Assembly: GCA_017508425.1 (NCBI GenBank)
Contig: JAFVYZ010000045.1
Coordinates: 5,220 to 69,219, forward strand
From: Clostridia bacterium
Lineage (GTDB): Bacteria > Bacillota > Clostridia > Oscillospirales > CAG-272
Direction: 5' to 3'
Length of the DNA: 64,000 nt
Below, piece after piece: positions 31,966-57,111 of the stretch (the first letter of the stretch is position 1; each line of letters starts with the position of its first letter). The notes below the pieces were generated by a model. The model searched no databases. It saw nothing but the letters and a program-made list of their open reading frames with translations, and had not been told where the DNA came from. A program made the position numbers and the translations under genes.

Positions 31966-34374
31966 ATGACTGAACTTGAAAACCGCTATCTTTCGGTCAA
32001 GCGCGCTCTTTTTGACCGCTACTACAATGCGTTAAACGAAGAGCAACGCCGTGCCGTATATCATATCAACGGACCGCTTTTGATATTGGCGGGTGCGGGA
32101 AGCGGCAAGACTACCGTGTTGGTCCACCGCATTGCCTACATACTTCGCTTTGGAAATGCATATCATAGCGATTACGTTCCCTTTGACCTGGATGCTGCCC
32201 ATGTGGACGCACTTGAAAAAACGGCCCGATCGAGCATCGATCGCGAGGAGCTGGAGGCGATCCTCTCAGAATTCACCAACAGTCCTTGCCCCCCTTGGCG
32301 TATTTTGGCAATTACCTTTACCAACAAGGCCGCAGGGGAGATCAAAGCGCGTCTTGCCGGCGCTTTTCCTGATGATCCGGACATTACAGGCAATATTTGG
32401 GCCGGTACCTTCCACTCGATCTGTATGAGGATCCTGCGCCGTTACACCGAGCTTGCAGGCCTGCGTCCCGGATTTTCGGTATATGATGCGGATGACAGCA
32501 AAAAAGCGATCCAAGCGATCTTAAAAGAGATGGATATTGGCGACGCCGTGCTTTCGGCAAAATCGGCGCAAAACTACATCAGTCGCGCCAAGGACCGTAT
32601 GATCACACCCGAAGAATATATGCTGGAATTCGGCAACGATGCAAGGCAAAAAACGGTGGCCGCCGTTTATGATGCTTATCAAAAACGCCTTGCCGCATCC
32701 AATGCGCTCGACTTTGATGACATTATTTGCCGCACGGTCAAGCTGCTTGAAGAAAACAAGGAGATCCTGCAAAGCTATCAAAGCCAGTTCCGTTACGTGT
32801 CGGTTGACGAGTATCAGGATACCAACGAAGCGCAGTTCCGCCTAACCGCTCTCCTTTCGGGTGGCTGGCGCAATTTGATGGTAGTGGGCGATGATGACCA
32901 AAGCATTTATAAGTTCCGCGGTGCGACCATTGCCAACATTCTCGGCTTTGACCGCGTGTTCAGCGATGCCGGTGTAATTCGCTTGGAGCAAAATTATCGA
33001 TCCACACAATCGATCCTTGATGCCGCAAACGCCATTATTTCGCACAACGAGGGGCGAAAAGGAAAAACCCTTTGGACCGATCGCGGCAAGGGAAGCAAGA
33101 TCCATTTGCTCAATCCCGACAATCAAAACACCGAGGCCCGCACCATCATCGATACCGTCATTCGTAAGGTGTCGAAGGAGGGAATGCACTACCGTGATTT
33201 TGCCGTTCTTTACCGTACCAATGCCCAATCCAACGCACTGGAAATGGCATTTACAAGAAGCGGCATCCCTTATCGTATGCTGGGCGGTGTACGTTTCACC
33301 GACCGAAAAGAGATCCGTGACCTGGTGGCCTACCTCCAGCTCATCAACAATCATGAGGACCAGGATCGCCTCCTGCGTATCGTAAACGAGCCTCGTCGCA
33401 AGATCGGTGACAAAACGCTTGCTGCAGTTGCCGAGATCGCAGCCTTTGAGGGCGTCTGTATGTTTGACGTTATGTCACGTGCTGATGCTTACGTTGCACT
33501 TGCGCGCTCGGCCTCCACGCTTATCGGCTTTACCAAGCTGATCAACGATCTTACCGATCTCTCGGGCGTGATGGCACTGGATGATTTCGTCAAAGAGGTT
33601 TTGGAGCGCACGGGTTACCGTCAAATGATCAAGGATATGGGGCCCGAAGAGGCCGATCGCCTTGACAACCTTGATGAATTTATTTCTAACGTAGTAGAAT
33701 ATCAAAATGAGACCGATACCCCAACCCTGGTTGAATTTTTGGAAGAAACCGCTCTTATTGCCGACGTTGACCGTTACGATGAGTCGGCCGACGCTGTGGT
33801 CCTGATGACCATCCATAGCGCCAAGGGCCTTGAGTTTCCCCAAGTCTTCTTGCCGGGATTTGAGGAGGGAATTTTCCCGGGACTTCAAACCGTGCTTGGC
33901 GGACAAGCTGAAATTGAGGAAGAGCGCCGCCTTGCATATGTTGCCGTCACGCGTGCTAAGGATGAGCTTTACATTCTGCACACCAAATCACGTATGCTTT
34001 ACGGCCGCACCAGCCCGAATCCTCCTTCACGCTTTTTGGCTGAGATCCCCGAGGAATTGCTGGAGCTGCCAAAGCCCGCTCCCGGCACTGCCGCTTACGC
34101 GCAAGGTGCCGCCCGACAAAATGCGGCACAGCGTTCTTACGGTGGACTGCGCACGGCAAGCGCCGACCGCATCACAGTCGGCCCCACGCGCTCGGCTGAT
34201 ACGGCAAGTGTGCCCGTCTTTGCAGTGGGCGATCGTGTGCGTCACGTGCTTTTTGGAGATGGCGATATTCTCTCGGCGCAAAAGATGGGAACAGACTGCC
34301 TTTACGAGATTGCATTTGATACCAAAGGTACCAAGAAGCTGATGGGAAAATACGCGAAGTTGAAGAAAATATGA
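31966..34374 (+). CDS. pcrA: ATP-dependent DNA helicase PcrA/UvrD
   Basis: AGAGSGKT, ITFTNKAA, VDEYQDTN, VGDDDQSIY.FRGA, TIHSAKGLEF, EERRLAYVAVTRA; C-terminal Tudor-like domain. Confidence 0.96.
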   Translation: MTELENRYLSVKRALFDRYYNALNEEQRRAVYHINGPLLILAGAGSGKTTVLVHRIAYILRFGNAYHSDYVPFDLDAAHVDALEKTARSSIDREELEAILSEFTNSPCPPWRILAITFTNKAAGEIKARLAGAFPDDPDITGNIWAGTFHSICMRILRRYTELAGLRPGFSVYDADDSKKAIQAILKEMDIGDAVLSAKSAQNYISRAKDRMITPEEYMLEFGNDARQKTVAAVYDAYQKRLAASNALDFDDIICRTVKLLEENKEILQSYQSQFRYVSVDEYQDTNEAQFRLTALLSGGWRNLMVVGDDDQSIYKFRGATIANILGFDRVFSDAGVIRLEQNYRSTQSILDAANAIISHNEGRKGKTLWTDRGKGSKIHLLNPDNQNTEARTIIDTVIRKVSKEGMHYRDFAVLYRTNAQSNALEMAFTRSGIPYRMLGGVRFTDRKEIRDLVAYLQLINNHEDQDRLLRIVNEPRRKIGDKTLAAVAEIAAFEGVCMFDVMSRADAYVALARSASTLIGFTKLINDLTDLSGVMALDDFVKEVLERTGYRQMIKDMGPEEADRLDNLDEFISNVVEYQNETDTPTLVEFLEETALIADVDRYDESADAVVLMTIHSAKGLEFPQVFLPGFEEGIFPGLQTVLGGQAEIEEERRLAYVAVTRAKDELYILHTKSRMLYGRTSPNPPSRFLAEIPEELLELPKPAPGTAAYAQGAARQNAAQRSYGGLRTASADRITVGPTRSADTASVPVFAVGDRVRHVLFGDGDILSAQKMGTDCLYEIAFDTKGTKKLMGKYAKLKKI

Positions 34375-34388
34375 AATGAGGTCGCATT

Positions 34389-35054
34389 ATGAAAGAAAAT
34401 AAGTTTTCATTTAGGCAATTAAGGCTCTTTGCCTTTGCCCTGTCCGCCCTGGCTCTGGTCTTCTTCGTTTTAGCTTGTGCAACCAACGATGGAACCGCGA
34501 TCTTCTTTGGAGTTATGGCTGCAGCTTCACTTTTTACCGGCTGCGTGTGCCTTTATCTCGCGCACCGTATTACCACCAAGCACACCAATTTTTTCTTGTT
34601 TGATCGCAGGCGCGGTATTACCCTGACTCCCGAAACGCTCACGTTTCCTTTTATCAATGACAATCTTACATATTTCCTTTCCGCCTATGTGGATAAGTCA
34701 CTGGACTTGTGGGAGGAGATCCCCAAAAACCTGGAAATGGCTTTTGAGGCAACGCCCGCTTATCGCACCCCCGTGGCCTTTCGCATGCTCCACGATATGT
34801 CTTTGCAGGAGGAAAAGGATATTGTACCGCTCTTTCTTGCTGCCGAGAAGCGCACGGTAGCTGCGCTTTGCCGCGCGATCAAAGCCGGCGGAGATAAGGA
34901 AATGGCGGATATCATCTTTGAAATGAAGTGTGATCCCGAGCGCTTATCTACGCGCATCGTACCGTTTTTCAAGAAAAACAAACGAATTTTTGAAGGTAGG
35001 CTCTATCATTACGTGAAAAATCATATTGATGAATTTGACACGGCCAAAAAATAA
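34389..35054 (+). CDS. Hypothetical protein with two N-terminal TM helices
   Basis: RBS GAGG; 221-aa ORF between pcrA and a terminator. Confidence 0.75.
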   Translation: MKENKFSFRQLRLFAFALSALALVFFVLACATNDGTAIFFGVMAAASLFTGCVCLYLAHRITTKHTNFFLFDRRRGITLTPETLTFPFINDNLTYFLSAYVDKSLDLWEEIPKNLEMAFEATPAYRTPVAFRMLHDMSLQEEKDIVPLFLAAEKRTVAALCRAIKAGGDKEMADIIFEMKCDPERLSTRIVPFFKKNKRIFEGRLYHYVKNHIDEFDTAKK

Positions 35055-35060
35055 AACAAT

Positions 35061-35097
35061 AAAAAACGCCTGCAACTCGGTTGCAGGCGTTTTTTTT
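35061..35097 (+). terminator. Intrinsic terminator
   Basis: AAAAAACGCCTGCAAC-TCG-GTTGCAGGCGTTTTTTT. Confidence 0.9.
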
Positions 35098-35170
35098 GCG
35101 CCAAAATTTGTGCCGCGTAAAGAAATAGAAGATGCTAAAAATAAGGATGGTGATGAAAGGAGTATTCGAT

Positions 35171-35950
35171 ATGAAACGAATTTTATTATTTTTCACGTGC
35201 CTCCTTATGTTGTCTTTAAATACCATAAGGATCGGCGCCGCTACACGCGAAATTCATTGGTACACCGTAAAAAACAAGGAGCACAAGCAAGCGTTGGTAC
35301 CGGGCGAGCTTGCAGAGGTAGAGAAGCACGGAGGAGTGTATATCGATCACCGTCATGGGGATGACAATCCCGACAAGATCATTTATCTTACCTTTGATGT
35401 GGGCTATGAAAACGGAAACGTTGAAAAAACACTCAATACACTCAAAGAAAAAAACGCGCCGGGGGCCTTTTTTGTTTTAAAGCATTTTGTGACCGAGCGC
35501 AGTGATCTTTTGTTGCGTATGAAGGCCGAAGGACACGATATTTGCAATCATACGGCCAGTCACAAAAATTTAGCACGCGCCACCGGGGAAGAGATAAAAG
35601 CCGAGATCGAGGAGCTTGAACGGGCTGTGGAATCGGTGACAGGCGAAGGGACCAAGGCGTATTTCAGGCCACCTGAGGGTACCTTCTCCATCGAAATGCT
35701 CGAACACGTTTGCGCGCTTGGCTATAAAACGGTATTTTGGAGCTTTGCTTATGCTGATTGGGACAACCAAAAGCAACCGGATCCTCAAAAAGCACTTGAA
35801 AAGATCCTTTGTCATGCGCACAACGGTGCGGTGATTTTATTGCACCCAACCTCCGCAACCAATGCCGAAATTTTGGGGGATCTGATCGATGCACTCAGGA
35901 AAGAGGGATACCGCTTCGGGAGGCTGGATGAATTATGCGTGGCACGCTGA
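35171..35950 (+). CDS. pdaA: Polysaccharide deacetylase, PdaA-like (spore cortex muramic delta-lactam synthesis)
   Basis: Signal peptide; IYLTFDVGYENG, NHTASH, YFRPPEG, FWSFAYADW, HNGAVILLH. Confidence 0.8.
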   Translation: MKRILLFFTCLLMLSLNTIRIGAATREIHWYTVKNKEHKQALVPGELAEVEKHGGVYIDHRHGDDNPDKIIYLTFDVGYENGNVEKTLNTLKEKNAPGAFFVLKHFVTERSDLLLRMKAEGHDICNHTASHKNLARATGEEIKAEIEELERAVESVTGEGTKAYFRPPEGTFSIEMLEHVCALGYKTVFWSFAYADWDNQKQPDPQKALEKILCHAHNGAVILLHPTSATNAEILGDLIDALRKEGYRFGRLDELCVAR

Positions 35951-52185: not shown

Positions 52186-54750
52186 TTACCAAGGAGTAGG
52201 CACACCGTCAACCCAGCGCCAATAGTTGCCCGTGGCGGTAGGCTGCTCGGCGGAATAGTAATAGCGGGTGGCAGAGGTTAAGGAACCGTTGTTGTAACCC
52301 AAATCTATACCGGACCATTCATTTGCCGTCCCCTTGTAATATACACTTCCGAGATTGCTGCAATCATAGAACGCATACTCGCCGATGCTCGTGACGCTCG
52401 CGGGAATCGTGATCGACTTAAGGCTATTGCAATCATCGAAAGCCTGTGCGCCGATGCTAATGACGCTATCTGGGATCGTGAAGGATACAAGATGGTCTTT
52501 CCAAGCAAACGCACAAGCAGCGATGCCTACGGTATTAGCGCGCAAATGAACCGATGTTACATTCTGATCAGAATCAACTGCCCATTTATCCACGTAAGAT
52601 ACACCGTTCTCTTTTTGAAGAATACCCGTGCAATCATAGAACACAAATTCGGCGATGCTGGTGACGCTATCGGGAATCACGATGGATGTGAGCCCTTTGC
52701 AATTACCGAACGCATAAGAGCCGATGCTGGTGACGCTATTAGGAATCACGATGGACTTGAGGCCAGTGCAACCCTCGAACGTCTGCTCATAGATATGGGT
52801 GACCTTATTGGGAATCACGATGGATGTGAGCCCCGTGCAATCCCGGAACGCACTTCCGCCGATGCGGGTGACGCTCGCGGGGATCGTTATCGACGTGAGG
52901 CTGCCGCAACCCTCGAACGCAGAAGAGCCGATGCTCGTCAGCTGGCTGTTCTCACCAAACGTCACAGACGCGAGGTTGCTACAACGTTCAAACGCACAAT
53001 AGCCGATTTCTACGATGCTTGCAGGGACGAAGACCGAAACGATGGTATCGTTATCACAAAACGCCTCCTTACAAATGGCTATCACGGGCTTGCCTGCGTA
53101 GGTATCGGCAATTATAATTTGGCTAGTTGTGCCCTCATAGCCAATAACAGCAGCAGTGGTACCGTCGGCAGAAAGATCATACATAATGCCCTCTCCCCCC
53201 GTAATGGCGCGATTGCAAATAGTGCAATAGCCGGTTTTTGTATCAACGGTATGCTCTACCCTCCCCTCGGTTGCATCGCAATGTTGACAATCGTACCAAT
53301 GGTAGGAGCCGTCGTGCGAATAGGTGGTTTTATAGATGTGGGAGACCTTTTCGGTAAGATTGGTGATCTCCACCTTGCCACAAGTGGTACAGGTGTTGGT
53401 ATCATAGCCGACCGCATGACAGGTAGGGGGTGTGGTTACCGTTTCAAAATCATGGTCAGCGGCACTGCCCTGCTTCCATTCGAGCACGTTGCAGGTAAGG
53501 CAGATGCGGTAAAAGAGCCTATTTTCACAATAGACGTTTGCGTTGCCGCTGTAATCCACCCAGTCGGTGCCGAAGGTATGCTTGTGTGCGGAAAGCAGTG
53601 CGGCTACCTGTCTTTCCAGCTCAGCAAATCTTGCCTCGCTTGCAGTTTGCAGATCGGTAATCATGCCGTTGATCGTTGCAATTTCACTGTCGTGGTCAGA
53701 GGCAAGGATATCGAGCTTATTTTGCAGTTCGGTTTTGGCATCACTGATTGCCTTTTCGTTGGCGGCGATCTTGCTGTTGATCTCCGCTACGGCGGTATTG
53801 TATGTAGCGGTTAATTCGTCAAGCTCTGCCTTAGTTGCATCTGCCTTTTCGGTCAGTGCGGCAAGCTCCTCTTTGTGCTTGTCACCCAGTGCATTGATCG
53901 CCGCTTCGTTTGCCGTATCGGCAGTTTTCAGTGCTTCAAGGTCAGTCGCATATTTTGCCTCAAGCGCATCCAAGTCTGCTTGGGTGGCATCTGCCTTTAC
54001 GGTGAGTGCATCAAGCTCCTCTTTGTGCTTATCGCCCAGTGCCTTGATCGCGGCTTCGTTATCCTTATCCGCCTTTTGCAGTGCTTCAAGGTCGGTTGCG
54101 TATTTCGTTTCAAGTGCATCGAGCTCTGCTTGGGTGGCATCTGCCTTTGCGGTCAGTGCATCAAGCTCCTGTTGGTGCTTATCGCCCAGTGCTTTGATCG
54201 CGGCATCGTTTGCCGTGTCGGCGGCTTGCAGGGCGGCAAGGTCGGTGGCGTACTGTGCTTCAAGCGCATCTAAGTCTGCTTGGGTAGCATCTGCCTTTGC
54301 GGTGAGTGCATCAAGCTCCTCTTTGTGCTTGTCGCCCAGTGCTTTGATCGCCGCATCGTTTGCCGTGTCAGCCGCTTGCAGGGCTGCAAGGTCGGTGGCA
54401 TACTGTGCTTCAAGCAAATCCAAGTCTGCCTGCGTTGCCGTGTTTGCAGCAGTTAAAGCTGCCACAGCCTCGGCATGGGCGGCGGTCAGTGCATCATATT
54501 CCACCTTGTGCGCCACGTTTGCCGCTTCCAGCTCGGCAATTTTGGCGGTATAGGCATCGTTTAGTGCCTTGATTGCTGCCTCGTTGGCGGCAATTTTTTC
54601 ACTGAGTGCCGTTTCCAGTGTTTGTAACAGTGCTTCGGTATCCGTTTTGGTGTGGTAATTCTCTTCTTCCATGCATGCGGTAAAGCCTACCGTTATTGCC
54701 ATGGAAAGCAGTACCAGCAAAAGGACTGTTAACATTCTTTTTGCTGTCAT
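52186..54750 (-). CDS. Surface lipoprotein: tandem-repeat coiled-coil stalk, Cys/His modules, BspA-type leucine-rich repeats
   Basis: RBS AGGAGG; lipobox FTAC; 50-aa repeats; CxxC/H motifs; 23-aa LTSI.IP.SVTSIG..AF..C repeats. Confidence 0.88.
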   Translation of the reverse strand: MTAKRMLTVLLLVLLSMAITVGFTACMEEENYHTKTDTEALLQTLETALSEKIAANEAAIKALNDAYTAKIAELEAANVAHKVEYDALTAAHAEAVAALTAANTATQADLDLLEAQYATDLAALQAADTANDAAIKALGDKHKEELDALTAKADATQADLDALEAQYATDLAALQAADTANDAAIKALGDKHQQELDALTAKADATQAELDALETKYATDLEALQKADKDNEAAIKALGDKHKEELDALTVKADATQADLDALEAKYATDLEALKTADTANEAAINALGDKHKEELAALTEKADATKAELDELTATYNTAVAEINSKIAANEKAISDAKTELQNKLDILASDHDSEIATINGMITDLQTASEARFAELERQVAALLSAHKHTFGTDWVDYSGNANVYCENRLFYRICLTCNVLEWKQGSAADHDFETVTTPPTCHAVGYDTNTCTTCGKVEITNLTEKVSHIYKTTYSHDGSYHWYDCQHCDATEGRVEHTVDTKTGYCTICNRAITGGEGIMYDLSADGTTAAVIGYEGTTSQIIIADTYAGKPVIAICKEAFCDNDTIVSVFVPASIVEIGYCAFERCSNLASVTFGENSQLTSIGSSAFEGCGSLTSITIPASVTRIGGSAFRDCTGLTSIVIPNKVTHIYEQTFEGCTGLKSIVIPNSVTSIGSYAFGNCKGLTSIVIPDSVTSIAEFVFYDCTGILQKENGVSYVDKWAVDSDQNVTSVHLRANTVGIAACAFAWKDHLVSFTIPDSVISIGAQAFDDCNSLKSITIPASVTSIGEYAFYDCSNLGSVYYKGTANEWSGIDLGYNNGSLTSATRYYYSAEQPTATGNYWRWVDGVPTPW
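53836..54435 (-). repeat. Four tandem 150-bp (50-aa) coding repeats
   Basis: CAAGCTCCT recurs at 53862, 54012, 54162, 54312; unit TQADLDALEAQYATDLAALQAADTANDAAIKALGDKHKEELDALTAKADA. Confidence 0.92.
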
Positions 54751-54770
54751 GTCTTTTTCCCTCCTAAAAT

Positions 54771-54929
54771 AAAAAAAGTGCGCAACCGAAGCTACGCACC
54801 GAAAAATGCAGCTCCGATTGTCGCCAAACAATTACTGACACTCACAACAAGTATGCAGAAAAGAGCATGCATTTTTACCATAATAAAAATGCACACTTGT
54901 CGTGAAAAATATTCGTAATTGTTTGGCAA
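54771..54929 (-). ncRNA. Structured 5' leader RNA / attenuator, family unidentified
   Basis: Nested 13-bp and 16-bp stems, G-U pairs valid only on the minus strand, cUUCGg terminator plus U-tract before the RBS. Confidence 0.75.
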
Positions 54930-54934
54930 TTTTT

Positions 54935-54963
54935 ATTGTAGCACACACGCGCGTGTTTGTAAA
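54935..54963 (-). promoter_or_regulatory. SigA-type promoter for the leader RNA / LRR gene
   Basis: TTTACA-N17-TACAAT with extended TG. Confidence 0.7.
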
Positions 54964-54979
54964 GAGTTTTTTATAGCAA

Positions 54980-55009
54980 AAAATCCCTGCGCTTTAGCGC
55001 AGGGATTTT
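54980..55009 (-). terminator. Terminator of the rhaA-rhaD operon
   Basis: AAAATCCCTGCGC-TTTA-GCGCAGGGATTTT. Confidence 0.85.
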
Positions 55010-55025
55010 ACTGTATATTGTGTTA

Positions 55026-55853
55026 TCAATCGTCAAGAAACTCCTCGCGGAGTGTGACGCCAAAGTCACGTGCGATGGCGCGAAGGTTTGCATCCGTGAT
55101 CGTTTGCAGGATTTTGCCGCCGCCTGCAGACATGGCGAGATTGTAGATCTCTGCCGCCTTTTCGATGGTGTGCATCAAACCAAAGGTGATATCAAGGTCG
55201 GGTCCCGAGCAAAAGAGTCCGTGATGCGCCCATACAACCGCTTCAAACTCCTCCATTTGCTTGGAGGTGGCAAGTGCGATCTCGGCGCCCCCCGGCACCA
55301 TCCACTCTACCATACCGACACCACCCGGGAAAACAACAGGACATTCGGTCGCCGACTGCCAAAGTGCGCGGGTAAATGCCTTGGCGGTCAGGGGGGTGGT
55401 ATAGGTCATGGCAATGATATTGGCGGGGTGTGCGTGGTAAATGACACGGCAAGCGCCGTTCGTTGCCTTGACGCGCACGGCGTGGTTCATAAAGTGGCTC
55501 GGGAACTCGCTCGTGGGGCGCGCACCGTCTTCAAGCCCCCAAACGATGCGCCAGGCGCTTCCCTCTTTGTTGATCTCCACAATGCCAATGGAATGCGCGG
55601 GGTCAAGCATCACGTTGCGGAAAAACTTACCGCTGCCCGTGGTGAGGAAATACTCCCCACCGAGATGCGCCGCCGACACGCCCATTTCGTTCCACTCGCG
55701 GGGCTCGTTAAAGTAGGGGCGGCAAAGGGCTACATCCTCCTCGGTCATGCGATAGGTGAGGTTGCCGCCGTTTCTCTCGTGCCAGCCCTGCTCCCAGCCG
55801 TCGTTGCAGGCTCTAATATAATCCTTTACGATTTTAATATCTAAAATGCTCAT
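55026..55853 (-). CDS. rhaD: Rhamnulose-1-phosphate aldolase
   Basis: GWHERNGGNL, TGSGKFFRN, PTSE, HAHP, W.HHG. Confidence 0.93.
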   Translation of the reverse strand: MSILDIKIVKDYIRACNDGWEQGWHERNGGNLTYRMTEEDVALCRPYFNEPREWNEMGVSAAHLGGEYFLTTGSGKFFRNVMLDPAHSIGIVEINKEGSAWRIVWGLEDGARPTSEFPSHFMNHAVRVKATNGACRVIYHAHPANIIAMTYTTPLTAKAFTRALWQSATECPVVFPGGVGMVEWMVPGGAEIALATSKQMEEFEAVVWAHHGLFCSGPDLDITFGLMHTIEKAAEIYNLAMSAGGGKILQTITDANLRAIARDFGVTLREEFLDD

Positions 55854-55854
55854 T

Positions 55855-57111
55855 TCAGTGTCCTCTCTTTGAAAGCACGTCATTTTCGTATTTCAAGATC
55901 TCGGGATACCACTCGCCGTCCTCGGGTTTTCCGCACGCACGGCAGTATTCCCCCCAAACATCACCGAAGGGATAGATTTTAAGCTCCTCCTGTAGCGCCA
56001 TCAGCTCACCGAATCTACCCTCGTCCTGCAGGGCTTTCAGCTTGTCGTTTGGTTGGAGAAGCGCGAACAGCAACGCTTTTTGCACGTTACGGAAGCCCGT
56101 GACCCATGCGCTGATACGGTTGATGGAGGCATCAAAATAATCAAGCGCGATAAATACGCGATCCAGCGCGTCGCAACGCACGATCTCCTTGCAGATCTCC
56201 TTGGTTTCATCATCAAAGAGCACCACGTGATCGGAATCCCAACGCACGCCGCGTGTGATGTGGAGCGCCATATGCTTGTCGTAAGCAAGTATTGCGGAGA
56301 TCTTATCGCTGACGACCTCGGTGGGGTGATAATGACCGTTATCCATCAAAGAAATACAGTCGTCACGCCCTGCGGCATACTTGAGGCACCACTCGGCGGA
56401 GCCGACGGTGTAGCTTTCAACACCAATACCAAACACCTTACTCTCAGCACAAGGAAACACCTTTGTTTTATCAAAGGGCTCGGAGAGGATCTCATCAAAA
56501 GACTCTTTATAGCGCACGCGCGGACCGAGGCGGTCGGCGGGGATATCCTTGTAGCCGTCACCCGTCCAAATATTCATCACGCAGGGCTGCCCCAGCTCGT
56601 CGGCAAGATACTGCGAGATGCGCACCGAGGCCTTGCCGTGCTCCACCCAAAATTTACGCGTGTCCTCATTCGGGGAGGAGAGCGTCAAGGGATCGCACAT
56701 CGGATGGCCGAAAAACGTAGGATTAAAGTCACATCCCATACCGCGCGCCTTGCAAAACTCCACCCATTTGGAAAAATGCTTGGGTTCGAGCTTGTCGCGA
56801 TCGACCCAACCGCCGTTTTCCTCATCGAAAATGGCATAGCAGGCGTGAAGATTGAGCTTTACCGTGCCGGGCACGAGCGCGACGACCTTATCAATATCCT
56901 GCATCAGCTCCGCGGGAGTGGTTGCCTTGCCAAGGTAATTGCCCGTGATCTGAATACCGCCCGAAAGGCTCTTTTCTTTTTGATCAAAGCCGCCCACATC
57001 ATCGCCTTGCCAGCAGTGGAGCGCGACCGGCACTTTTCTTAATTTTTCAATTGCGGCATCGGTATCAATACCCAGTGCCGCATATTTCTTTTTGGCCTCG
57101 GAATAGGACAT
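55855..57111 (-). CDS. rhaA: L-rhamnose isomerase
   Basis: HCWQGDDV.GF, DFNPTFF, ESKVFGIG.ESYTVGS, GHYHPTE, VRWDSDHVV. Confidence 0.96.
   Translation of the reverse strand: MSYSEAKKKYAALGIDTDAAIEKLRKVPVALHCWQGDDVGGFDQKEKSLSGGIQITGNYLGKATTPAELMQDIDKVVALVPGTVKLNLHACYAIFDEENGGWVDRDKLEPKHFSKWVEFCKARGMGCDFNPTFFGHPMCDPLTLSSPNEDTRKFWVEHGKASVRISQYLADELGQPCVMNIWTGDGYKDIPADRLGPRVRYKESFDEILSEPFDKTKVFPCAESKVFGIGVESYTVGSAEWCLKYAAGRDDCISLMDNGHYHPTEVVSDKISAILAYDKHMALHITRGVRWDSDHVVLFDDETKEICKEIVRCDALDRVFIALDYFDASINRISAWVTGFRNVQKALLFALLQPNDKLKALQDEGRFGELMALQEELKIYPFGDVWGEYCRACGKPEDGEWYPEILKYENDVLSKRGH

Follow-up and report, generated by a model that had tools for sequence, protein, structure and literature searches.

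The PyrR-controlled pyr attenuators of Bacillus subtilis combine an anti-antiterminator, an antiterminator and a terminator in one hierarchy and occur in several copies per genome. In the OFF riboswitches SAM-I and M-box, an upstream domain captures the antiterminator strand and the terminator forms, in the M-box by compaction. The antisense-controlled attenuators of pT181 and pIP501 rely on a long leader with alternative folds, variable stems and a limited time window, and T-box leaders, ANTAR dual hairpins (both with a hexaloop that has A in its first position) and the RAT sites of BglG/LicT have a weak antiterminator that needs tRNA or protein. Here we describe a leader which, judged from its sequence, appears to work like the PyrR leaders and OFF riboswitches but lacks the features by which membership in the known classes was tested.

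The window, the whole stretch of 64,000 nucleotides that was analysed, comes from the genome of a Clostridia bacterium. The leader is preceded by the terminator of a rhamnose operon (rhaA, rhaD) and followed by the gene for a predicted surface lipoprotein (Table 1), whose LRR_5 repeats were matched with an E-value of 2e-73; it is anchored to its own promoter and is probably a three-way transcription attenuator of this gene. The promoter, P1, P2, loop strand and terminator that had been placed by the first-pass annotation were each confirmed on the minus strand at the coordinates it gave. Together, the rhamnose genes, the leader and the LRR gene make up a block (window positions 52186–57111) which is absent between purA and an AraC gene in three congeners, where purA directly adjoins the AraC gene. 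A fourth congener has a different LRR lipoprotein at the purA-araC site, preceded by a decayed leader. This decayed leader (L174 3078–3232, G291:C11) retains a P1 remnant and a weak terminator without S, and a rhaD remnant is adjacent.

Table 1. Features of the leader and its surroundings (window positions; P1 and P2, stems; L, S and D, strands).
Feature	Position	Strand	Description or basis
Whole element		minus	folded leader; predicted terminated RNA ~157 nt
Promoter	54963–54935	minus	TTTACA-17-TACAAT, extended TG; sigma-A type; 10/12 matches
P1 5' strand	54927–54915	minus	predicted transcript 5' end; folding, homologues
P1 3' strand	54835–54823	minus	13 Watson-Crick pairs with 54927–54915
P1alt		minus	P1 3' strand + linker, alternative small 4-bp hairpin; pairing check in homologues
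A-rich bulge (AUA)	54914–54910	minus	P1/P2 hinge; conservation
P2 5' strand	54905–54890	minus	sequence varies among copies
P2 3' strand	54857–54842	minus	16 pairs with P2 5' strand, 2 of them G-U
L strand	54893–54884	minus	local partner holding S; L:S pairing in alignment
S strand	54879–54863	minus	predicted anti-antiterminator, partner L or D; S:D and L:S pairing
D strand	54815–54801	minus	distal partner of S
Linker + D	54820–54801	minus	antiterminator 5' half; folding and covariation
Terminator hairpin	54800–54777	minus	10 pairs, UUCG loop; U-run to 54771
Antiterminator 3' half	54800–54783	minus	terminator left arm, loop, upper right arm
Ribosome binding site	54765–54760	minus	sequence
Start codon ATG	54750	minus	downstream gene
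Surface lipoprotein gene	52186–54750	minus	854 aa, predicted; lipobox-like N-terminus, coiled-coil-like repeats, BspA-type LRR_5
Terminator after rhaD	54980–55009	not assigned	insulates the unit on the upstream side

The region 54935–54760 folds with z = -9.1, none of 200 shuffles being equally stable, and the P1-P2 domain alone gives z = -8.5. At minimum energy, the 3' region forms a longer hairpin between 54820–54805 and 54800–54783 (z = -4.8) in place of the terminator, and on these folds this hairpin is the predicted antiterminator. Stepwise nested folding of the window copy likewise ends in the antiterminator. It had been claimed earlier that the P2 loop segment pairs either locally or distally, and both partners could be located, one in L and one in D. 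Since the distal strand is also the 5' half of the antiterminator, the S:D pseudoknot would act as an anti-antiterminator. Thus, the earlier proposal of a transcription attenuator agrees with the anatomy, but it overlooked the antiterminator helix and gave no route to read-through. Two other pairings were considered and rejected. The P2 5' strand, taken as an antiterminator against the terminator right arm, could pair in the window, but inspection of several homologues showed this complementarity to be disrupted, and U-A-U triples appear to have the wrong strand polarity for the usual geometry.

Homologues were detected by BLAST in 157 of 301 genomes and 67 of 97 genera of the same taxonomic family. 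A covariance model built on 30 copies gave one to eight matches in each of 55 of the 151 genomes searched in the order; across the phylum the same model matched 2 of 151 genomes, one of them the source genome. A strict sequence pattern was found in at least 120 stored stretches, with an estimated total of ~1,700, and the titles among the matches listed are those of gut and rumen Clostridia, nearly all metagenome bins. One copy (L135) is found in a record that bears the title Butyrivibrio crossotus, a species of which cultured strains exist. With two sequence patterns there was no match in IMG/VR, and plasmid sequences gave no match to the leader; two records titled 'Bacteriophage sp.' contain matches (titles unverified, one record carrying no annotation). 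The source genome (G000) holds three full copies (C30, C52 and C18) and one truncated copy (C8). We extracted 152 copies, of which P1 could be located in 142, and 136 were analysed, five badly anchored copies and one without an S match being left out. They fall into two size classes of 147–183 nt and 190–217 nt, the longer with an additional side hairpin and an extra stem. An extended -10 promoter lies upstream of nearly all copies, and because the spacer from the -10 to the first G of P1 is 6 nt in 105 of 135, this G is the likely transcription start. The hinge triplet is conserved (A 99%, U 95%, A 95% in 145 non-redundant copies, the column being anchored on the triplet itself), with AATA at the hinge in 104 of 136 copies. 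The structure had been proposed to be selected at the RNA level from its G-U pairs, and this bias was upheld among the homologues, the transcribed strand folding better than its complement in 136 of 136.

Tandem arrays of two to three promoter-RNA-terminator units occur at five loci (L165, L166, L167, L055 and L106). Tandem units were also seen at L141, G368:C186 and G313:C8. The linkers between tandem units are near-identical in appearance and their stems and interiors strongly different, and identical interiors recur between two species of one genus (L165 and L166). The truncated copy in the source genome (L162 2650–2727) runs directly from the promoter into the D strand, terminator, ribosome binding site and the gene for a 249-aa membrane protein. 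A search for truncated copies elsewhere returned mostly unrelated matches and three or so look-alikes. Several other elements were noted in passing. L204, L214, L215 and about a dozen further matches carry another recurring promoter-proximal hairpin with a U-run, which in L215 precedes a gene resembling ribosomal protein L33 and is possibly the leader of that operon. On C52 of the source genome, near 92293 on the minus strand, an L-loop-S-like stretch that may be due to chance runs into a terminator 1.3 kb from the leader copy. In L034 (576–650), a Gut-1 RNA (RF01706, 72.9 bits) lies beside a tRNA gene, ~0.9 kb from a leader copy.

In order to compare the two states, we used an alignment of 30 copies in MAFFT columns. 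P1 positions 1–9, the linker and D are partly fixed by the search patterns and thus only the free columns count as independent evidence. P1 positions 10 and 11, unused in selection, are paired in 99% and 96% of the 136 copies against 52% and 49% expected. For L:S, 91% of cells are paired and 3 of 10 pairs have changed on both sides; for S:D, 96% and 93% of cells are paired and 7 of 14 pairs have changed on both sides. All 136 copies can form an antiterminator with at least 10 pairs between D and the terminator; in 109 of them it is the more stable of the two hairpins, and in the other 27 the terminator is stronger. The average energy of D with the terminator is -19.5 kcal/mol for its own partner and -17.3 kcal/mol for a swapped one, and none of 5000 permutations was as low, a result which kinship inflates. 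Taken as whole states, OFF (P1, S:D, terminator) reaches 93.9% pairing, 16 of its 36 pairs having changed on both sides, and ON (P1, L:S, antiterminator) reaches 89.2%, with 15 of 36 so changed; on paired cells both exceed all 500 shuffles and lie far above slid controls. In the MAFFT columns, pairing at the top four pairs of the antiterminator is only 65%, and variation in its lowest three pairs is confined to one side. In a diverged subfamily (L230, L231 and L241), L, S, D and the terminator have all been rewritten together while S:D, antiterminator and terminator are retained; here the terminator beats the antiterminator in all three copies computed, two further copies that did not parse being left out.

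Homologues thus keep the promoter, P1, long-range pairing and terminator with compensatory changes. Sequence and covariation show a chain of four interlocked pairings that exclude one another (L:S, S:D, D:terminator and terminator). Three features of an attenuator are present: an intrinsic terminator directly before the ribosome binding site, a conserved antiterminator exclusive with it (in all 136 copies and the diverged ones), and a conserved anti-antiterminator exclusive with the antiterminator, as indicated by S:D covariation. We consider the attenuator logic itself very probable.

A cmscan against Rfam 15 at the gathering threshold gave no match in the window, in keeping with the initial view that no recognisable family is represented, and E-value-level matches over the element reached at most 18.6 bits, far below threshold. 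In 20 homologous loci, Rfam returned only tRNAs and one Gut-1 RNA, all outside the element. Titles and abstract starts in the literature contained no description of the family, which candidate-motif collections may still list. None of six motif strings occurs in the supplements of PMC8040213 other than its alignment archives, and a term search of the main text of bioRxiv 10.64898/2026.09.15.751765 gave nothing relevant.

The leader shares with the PyrR leaders the three-level hierarchy, an antiterminator stronger than the terminator and multiple copies. However, pyr leaders precede pyrimidine genes and have a PyrR-binding loop, whereas the leader described here has no Rfam match and the gene families behind it are unrelated to pyrimidine; its anti-antiterminator is a long-range pseudoknot from the tip of a 30–50 bp rod, guarded by a local hairpin. 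As in SAM-I and M-box, the antiterminator strand would be captured upstream, but there is no recognisable aptamer core, no Rfam match and no metabolic theme, and stem length varies. The long leader, alternative folds, transcriptional time window and variable stems resemble pT181 and pIP501; unlike those, the leader is chromosomal, has no plasmid match and precedes genes other than rep, and no antisense promoter was found, the plus strand over the window element containing none. T-box, ANTAR and BglG/LicT leaders are likewise terminator/antiterminator leaders of Firmicutes, but here the antiterminator is in most copies more stable than the terminator, and none of their signature features is present. 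A T-box would have a Stem I with specifier loop, a tRNA-pairing bulge in its antiterminator and amino-acid genes behind it; against one stand the lack of an Rfam match, the near-continuous antiterminator helix and the unrelated genes. For ANTAR, the first base of the sole candidate hexaloop (in P1alt) is G or U in all 136 copies. An RNA thermometer or a leader peptide is an unlikely trigger. The median OFF-ON difference is -10.6, -9.6 and -9.1 kcal/mol at 25, 37 and 42 °C (145 copies; nearest-neighbour model without a pseudoknot term), so that the balance barely depends on temperature in this range; distances across the element show no 3-nt periodicity by eye, and no ribosome binding site precedes candidate starts.

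How might such a leader switch? The P1-P2 rod would fold first, with S held by L. The emerging D strand would then zip onto the left arm and loop of the terminator, giving read-through. Alternatively, D would be caught by S from the exposed loop end, leading to termination near 54771 and release of a stable RNA of ~157 nt. For this, D, which leaves the base of the 30–50 bp rod through a 7-nt linker, would have to reach the rod tip, and the rod would have to bend at the conserved A-rich hinge. The pseudoknot cost of S:D is likely large, and a 14-bp helix in a closed loop probably cannot wind fully while polymerase holds the 3' end. In constrained folds, the first bases of the P2 3' strand replace S on part of L once S leaves, which would reduce the cost of freeing S; this cost correlates with the S:D energy (r = -0.51 in the short class, -0.35 in the long class). 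The distance from S to the base of P1 is narrow, 54–69 nt and 60–72 nt in the two classes (5th–95th percentile), as expected if the gap must be bridged in cis. Together with the A-rich bulge at the P1/P2 joint, this favours fold-back at the hinge.

We tentatively propose that transcription reads through by kinetic default unless a factor acting in trans, most probably a protein encoded elsewhere in the genome, favours the fold-back and turns the gene off. OFF could instead be the default, because it wins by a median of 9.6 kcal/mol when no pseudoknot penalty is charged. No protein family recurs beside the leader except as cargo in 560 ORFs from 145 loci (flanks up to 1.5 kb, ~0.3 kb in 40 loci). 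The same scan found no constant recombinase or reverse transcriptase neighbour of the kind linked to an IS110 bridge/seek RNA, a retron or another enzyme-linked ncRNA. The truncated C8 copy lacks S and yet has the terminator as its full-length fold, which a switch based on S alone does not predict. We rejected this copy as proof of constitutive read-through, since its antiterminator forms first but its terminator wins at full length.

The genes close behind the leader are mostly of surface, membrane or small accessory types. Among the 149 copies that had sufficient sequence, the start of a same-strand ORF follows within 50 nt in 107 and within 150 nt in 130, and 19 are followed by none; the median distance is 26 nt. 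By a crude test, 74 of the 130 downstream ORFs begin with a hydrophobic stretch. A Pfam scan of the first 380 residues of 96 of 132 downstream ORFs gave 9 LRR_5, 6 SHOCT, 6 zinc-ribbon, 3 AMP-binding, 2 AbrB/MazE and 2 XRE-type matches, single matches to lectins, an M23 peptidase and others, and no family for 45. LRR-type proteins are clustered in 26 of 145 loci. At one copy in the source genome (L002 1606–1764, on C52), a 52-aa peptide gene lies between the leader and the gene for a 1,265-aa surface protein.

One recurrent cargo is a small Cys-rich protein of 55–70 aa with a CCDECD motif and no Pfam family (L221–L250), which corresponds to an unnamed Atlas cluster of 2,357. The leader stands directly in front of its gene in 26 of 28 oriented loci (2 of 30 were not orientable), and several copies of the gene are truncated or frameshifted. 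We rejected this protein as an obligatory regulator: it occurs in just 20 of 201 genomes of the taxonomic family, with up to six matches in one genome, against about half for the leader, and is absent from the source genome (83% complete).

Some leader copies, mostly with the Cys-rich gene, sit in cassettes with serine-recombinase-type ends. Two leader and Cys-rich units from different genera share 95.9% identity across 631 bp and have unrelated flanks. Many of these units lie between inverted repeats of 17 bp, each at a distance of 9 nt from a TT; of 11 complete cassettes, 10 have the TT at both ends. In many cases the flanks correspond to the two arms of one host terminator, the mean arm score being 11.2 (6.6 for mismatched flanks) and 4 of 11 scores exceeding the control maximum. 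The elements thus appear to insert into the loops of host intrinsic terminators; the word 'terminator' does not occur in the main text of PMC10083194. In 9 of 32 metagenome matches, large serine recombinase genes (Resolvase, Recombinase and Zn-ribbon domains) have these ends on their flanks. TnpX-like large-serine-recombinase mobilisable elements resemble the cassettes in their recombinase-type ends and in having the same 2-bp core at both ends, but they parallel the vehicle, not the leader, and the window copy lacks such ends. The vehicle is generic and not leader-specific: the leader occurs in 0 of 36 end-anchored loci, and the end motif at 4 of 84 general leader loci compared with 12 of 23 Cys-rich loci.

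Non-autonomous cassettes of 0.7–3.2 kb, with symmetric ends around the TT core and varied cargo, were seen at L069, L113, L221, L222, L234 and L249, and recombinase-bearing elements at L257, L260, L263, L264, L267, L271, L273, L274 and L277. In some copies (L222, L233 and L069) a palindromic repeat of ~110 bp is nested between the cassette left end and the promoter. No cassette inverted repeats flank the window copy, and the terminators on both sides of its unit are intact and not split. In the source genome, cassette ends were found only on C7 (near 11471, minus strand) and C8 (near 241, minus strand), with no leader beside them, apart from weak matches on C43. A distant serine recombinase (28% identity) is encoded on C13 at 33928–35478.

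Among readings that compete with a regulatory protein, a new RNA-only switch class would be the most far-reaching and is doubtful. Here the 30–50 bp rod would fold back so that its tip captures the antiterminator, sensing a messenger, an ion or a trans RNA by which uncultured gut Clostridia control the display of surface proteins, and the switch would spread between genera on the terminator-loop recombinase cassettes. A more specific form, which we consider unlikely, is that the same switch is a new riboswitch class: the ligand, a small molecule or ion, would either bind at the site of stacking between S:D and the terminator or compact the rod, and would shut off the gene without protein. Anti-antiterminator logic is generally that of transcriptional OFF riboswitches, copies lie in front of several envelope genes as in second-messenger regulons, and some bases are conserved beyond pairing (the first G of S in 96%, the bulged base after it and the hinge AUA). 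Most conserved bases are nevertheless accounted for by the interlocked helices, the body of P2 is free in sequence and length, and the downstream genes, nearly half of those scanned having no Pfam family, share no metabolic theme.

Two further readings seem improbable to a similar degree. In the first, the P1 5' strand is lost to an antisense RNA, a protein or 5' decay in the course of the long delay set by P2, whereupon P1alt forms, the antiterminator is weakened and D reaches S. The 4-bp P1alt is possible in 99–100% of the 136 copies, its loop-closing bases are coupled within both size classes (G/A in 80 and U/G in 58 of 145), and P1 identity differs among copies of one genome. P1alt is short, however, its columns are part of the search pattern with almost no two-sided changes, and the coupling could reflect ancestry; besides the missing antisense promoter, a noisy fuzzy genome scan gave no convincing complementary RNA among the matches listed. 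In the second, the leader is a portable promoter that is off by default and gives accessory surface genes a fixed leak, or stochastic low or variable expression, without an external signal. Cassette movement between genera, the unrelated genes behind the leader and the decayed copy before a different LRR lipoprotein at the same site in a congener fit such an element, but four interlocked strands and a hinge kept across an order would be costly where a weak terminator would suffice.

A stand-alone small RNA gene, with downstream genes merely using read-through, is very unlikely. The tandem arrays with near-identical linkers and different interiors would suit it, as would helices protecting both ends, but the antiterminator is conserved throughout and gene spacing is tight; the L167 array also keeps a remnant of a ribosome binding site and gene start behind its first unit, which unit duplication would leave. 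The first-pass annotation had offered an sRNA of ~160 nt as its alternative, and this is made less likely by the same-strand gene within 50 nt of the terminator in most copies, though it may still apply to tandem units without a gene. Lastly, a DNA-level element (a MITE, an attC-like site or a segment invertible between the P1 repeats), suggested by perfect 13-bp inverted repeats, patchy distribution and several copies per genome, is hardly credible and largely refuted already: the leader begins at the predicted +1 and ends in a terminator, G-U pairs are tolerated on the transcribed strand only (136/136), no interior is inverted among the analysed copies (whose anchors required S forward), and the true mobile ends, where present, lie 150–340 nt outside the leader.

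The leader belongs to a large family of regulatory RNAs that is absent from Rfam and occurs in gut and rumen Clostridia, which are abundant and mostly uncultured. The genes marked by the family are dispersed surface, membrane and small regulatory genes, which probably respond to one common signal. The cassettes that target terminator loops are a separate lead on harmless insertion sites and the movement of accessory genes. Finding the signal would reveal a new riboswitch ligand or a new RNA-binding regulator.
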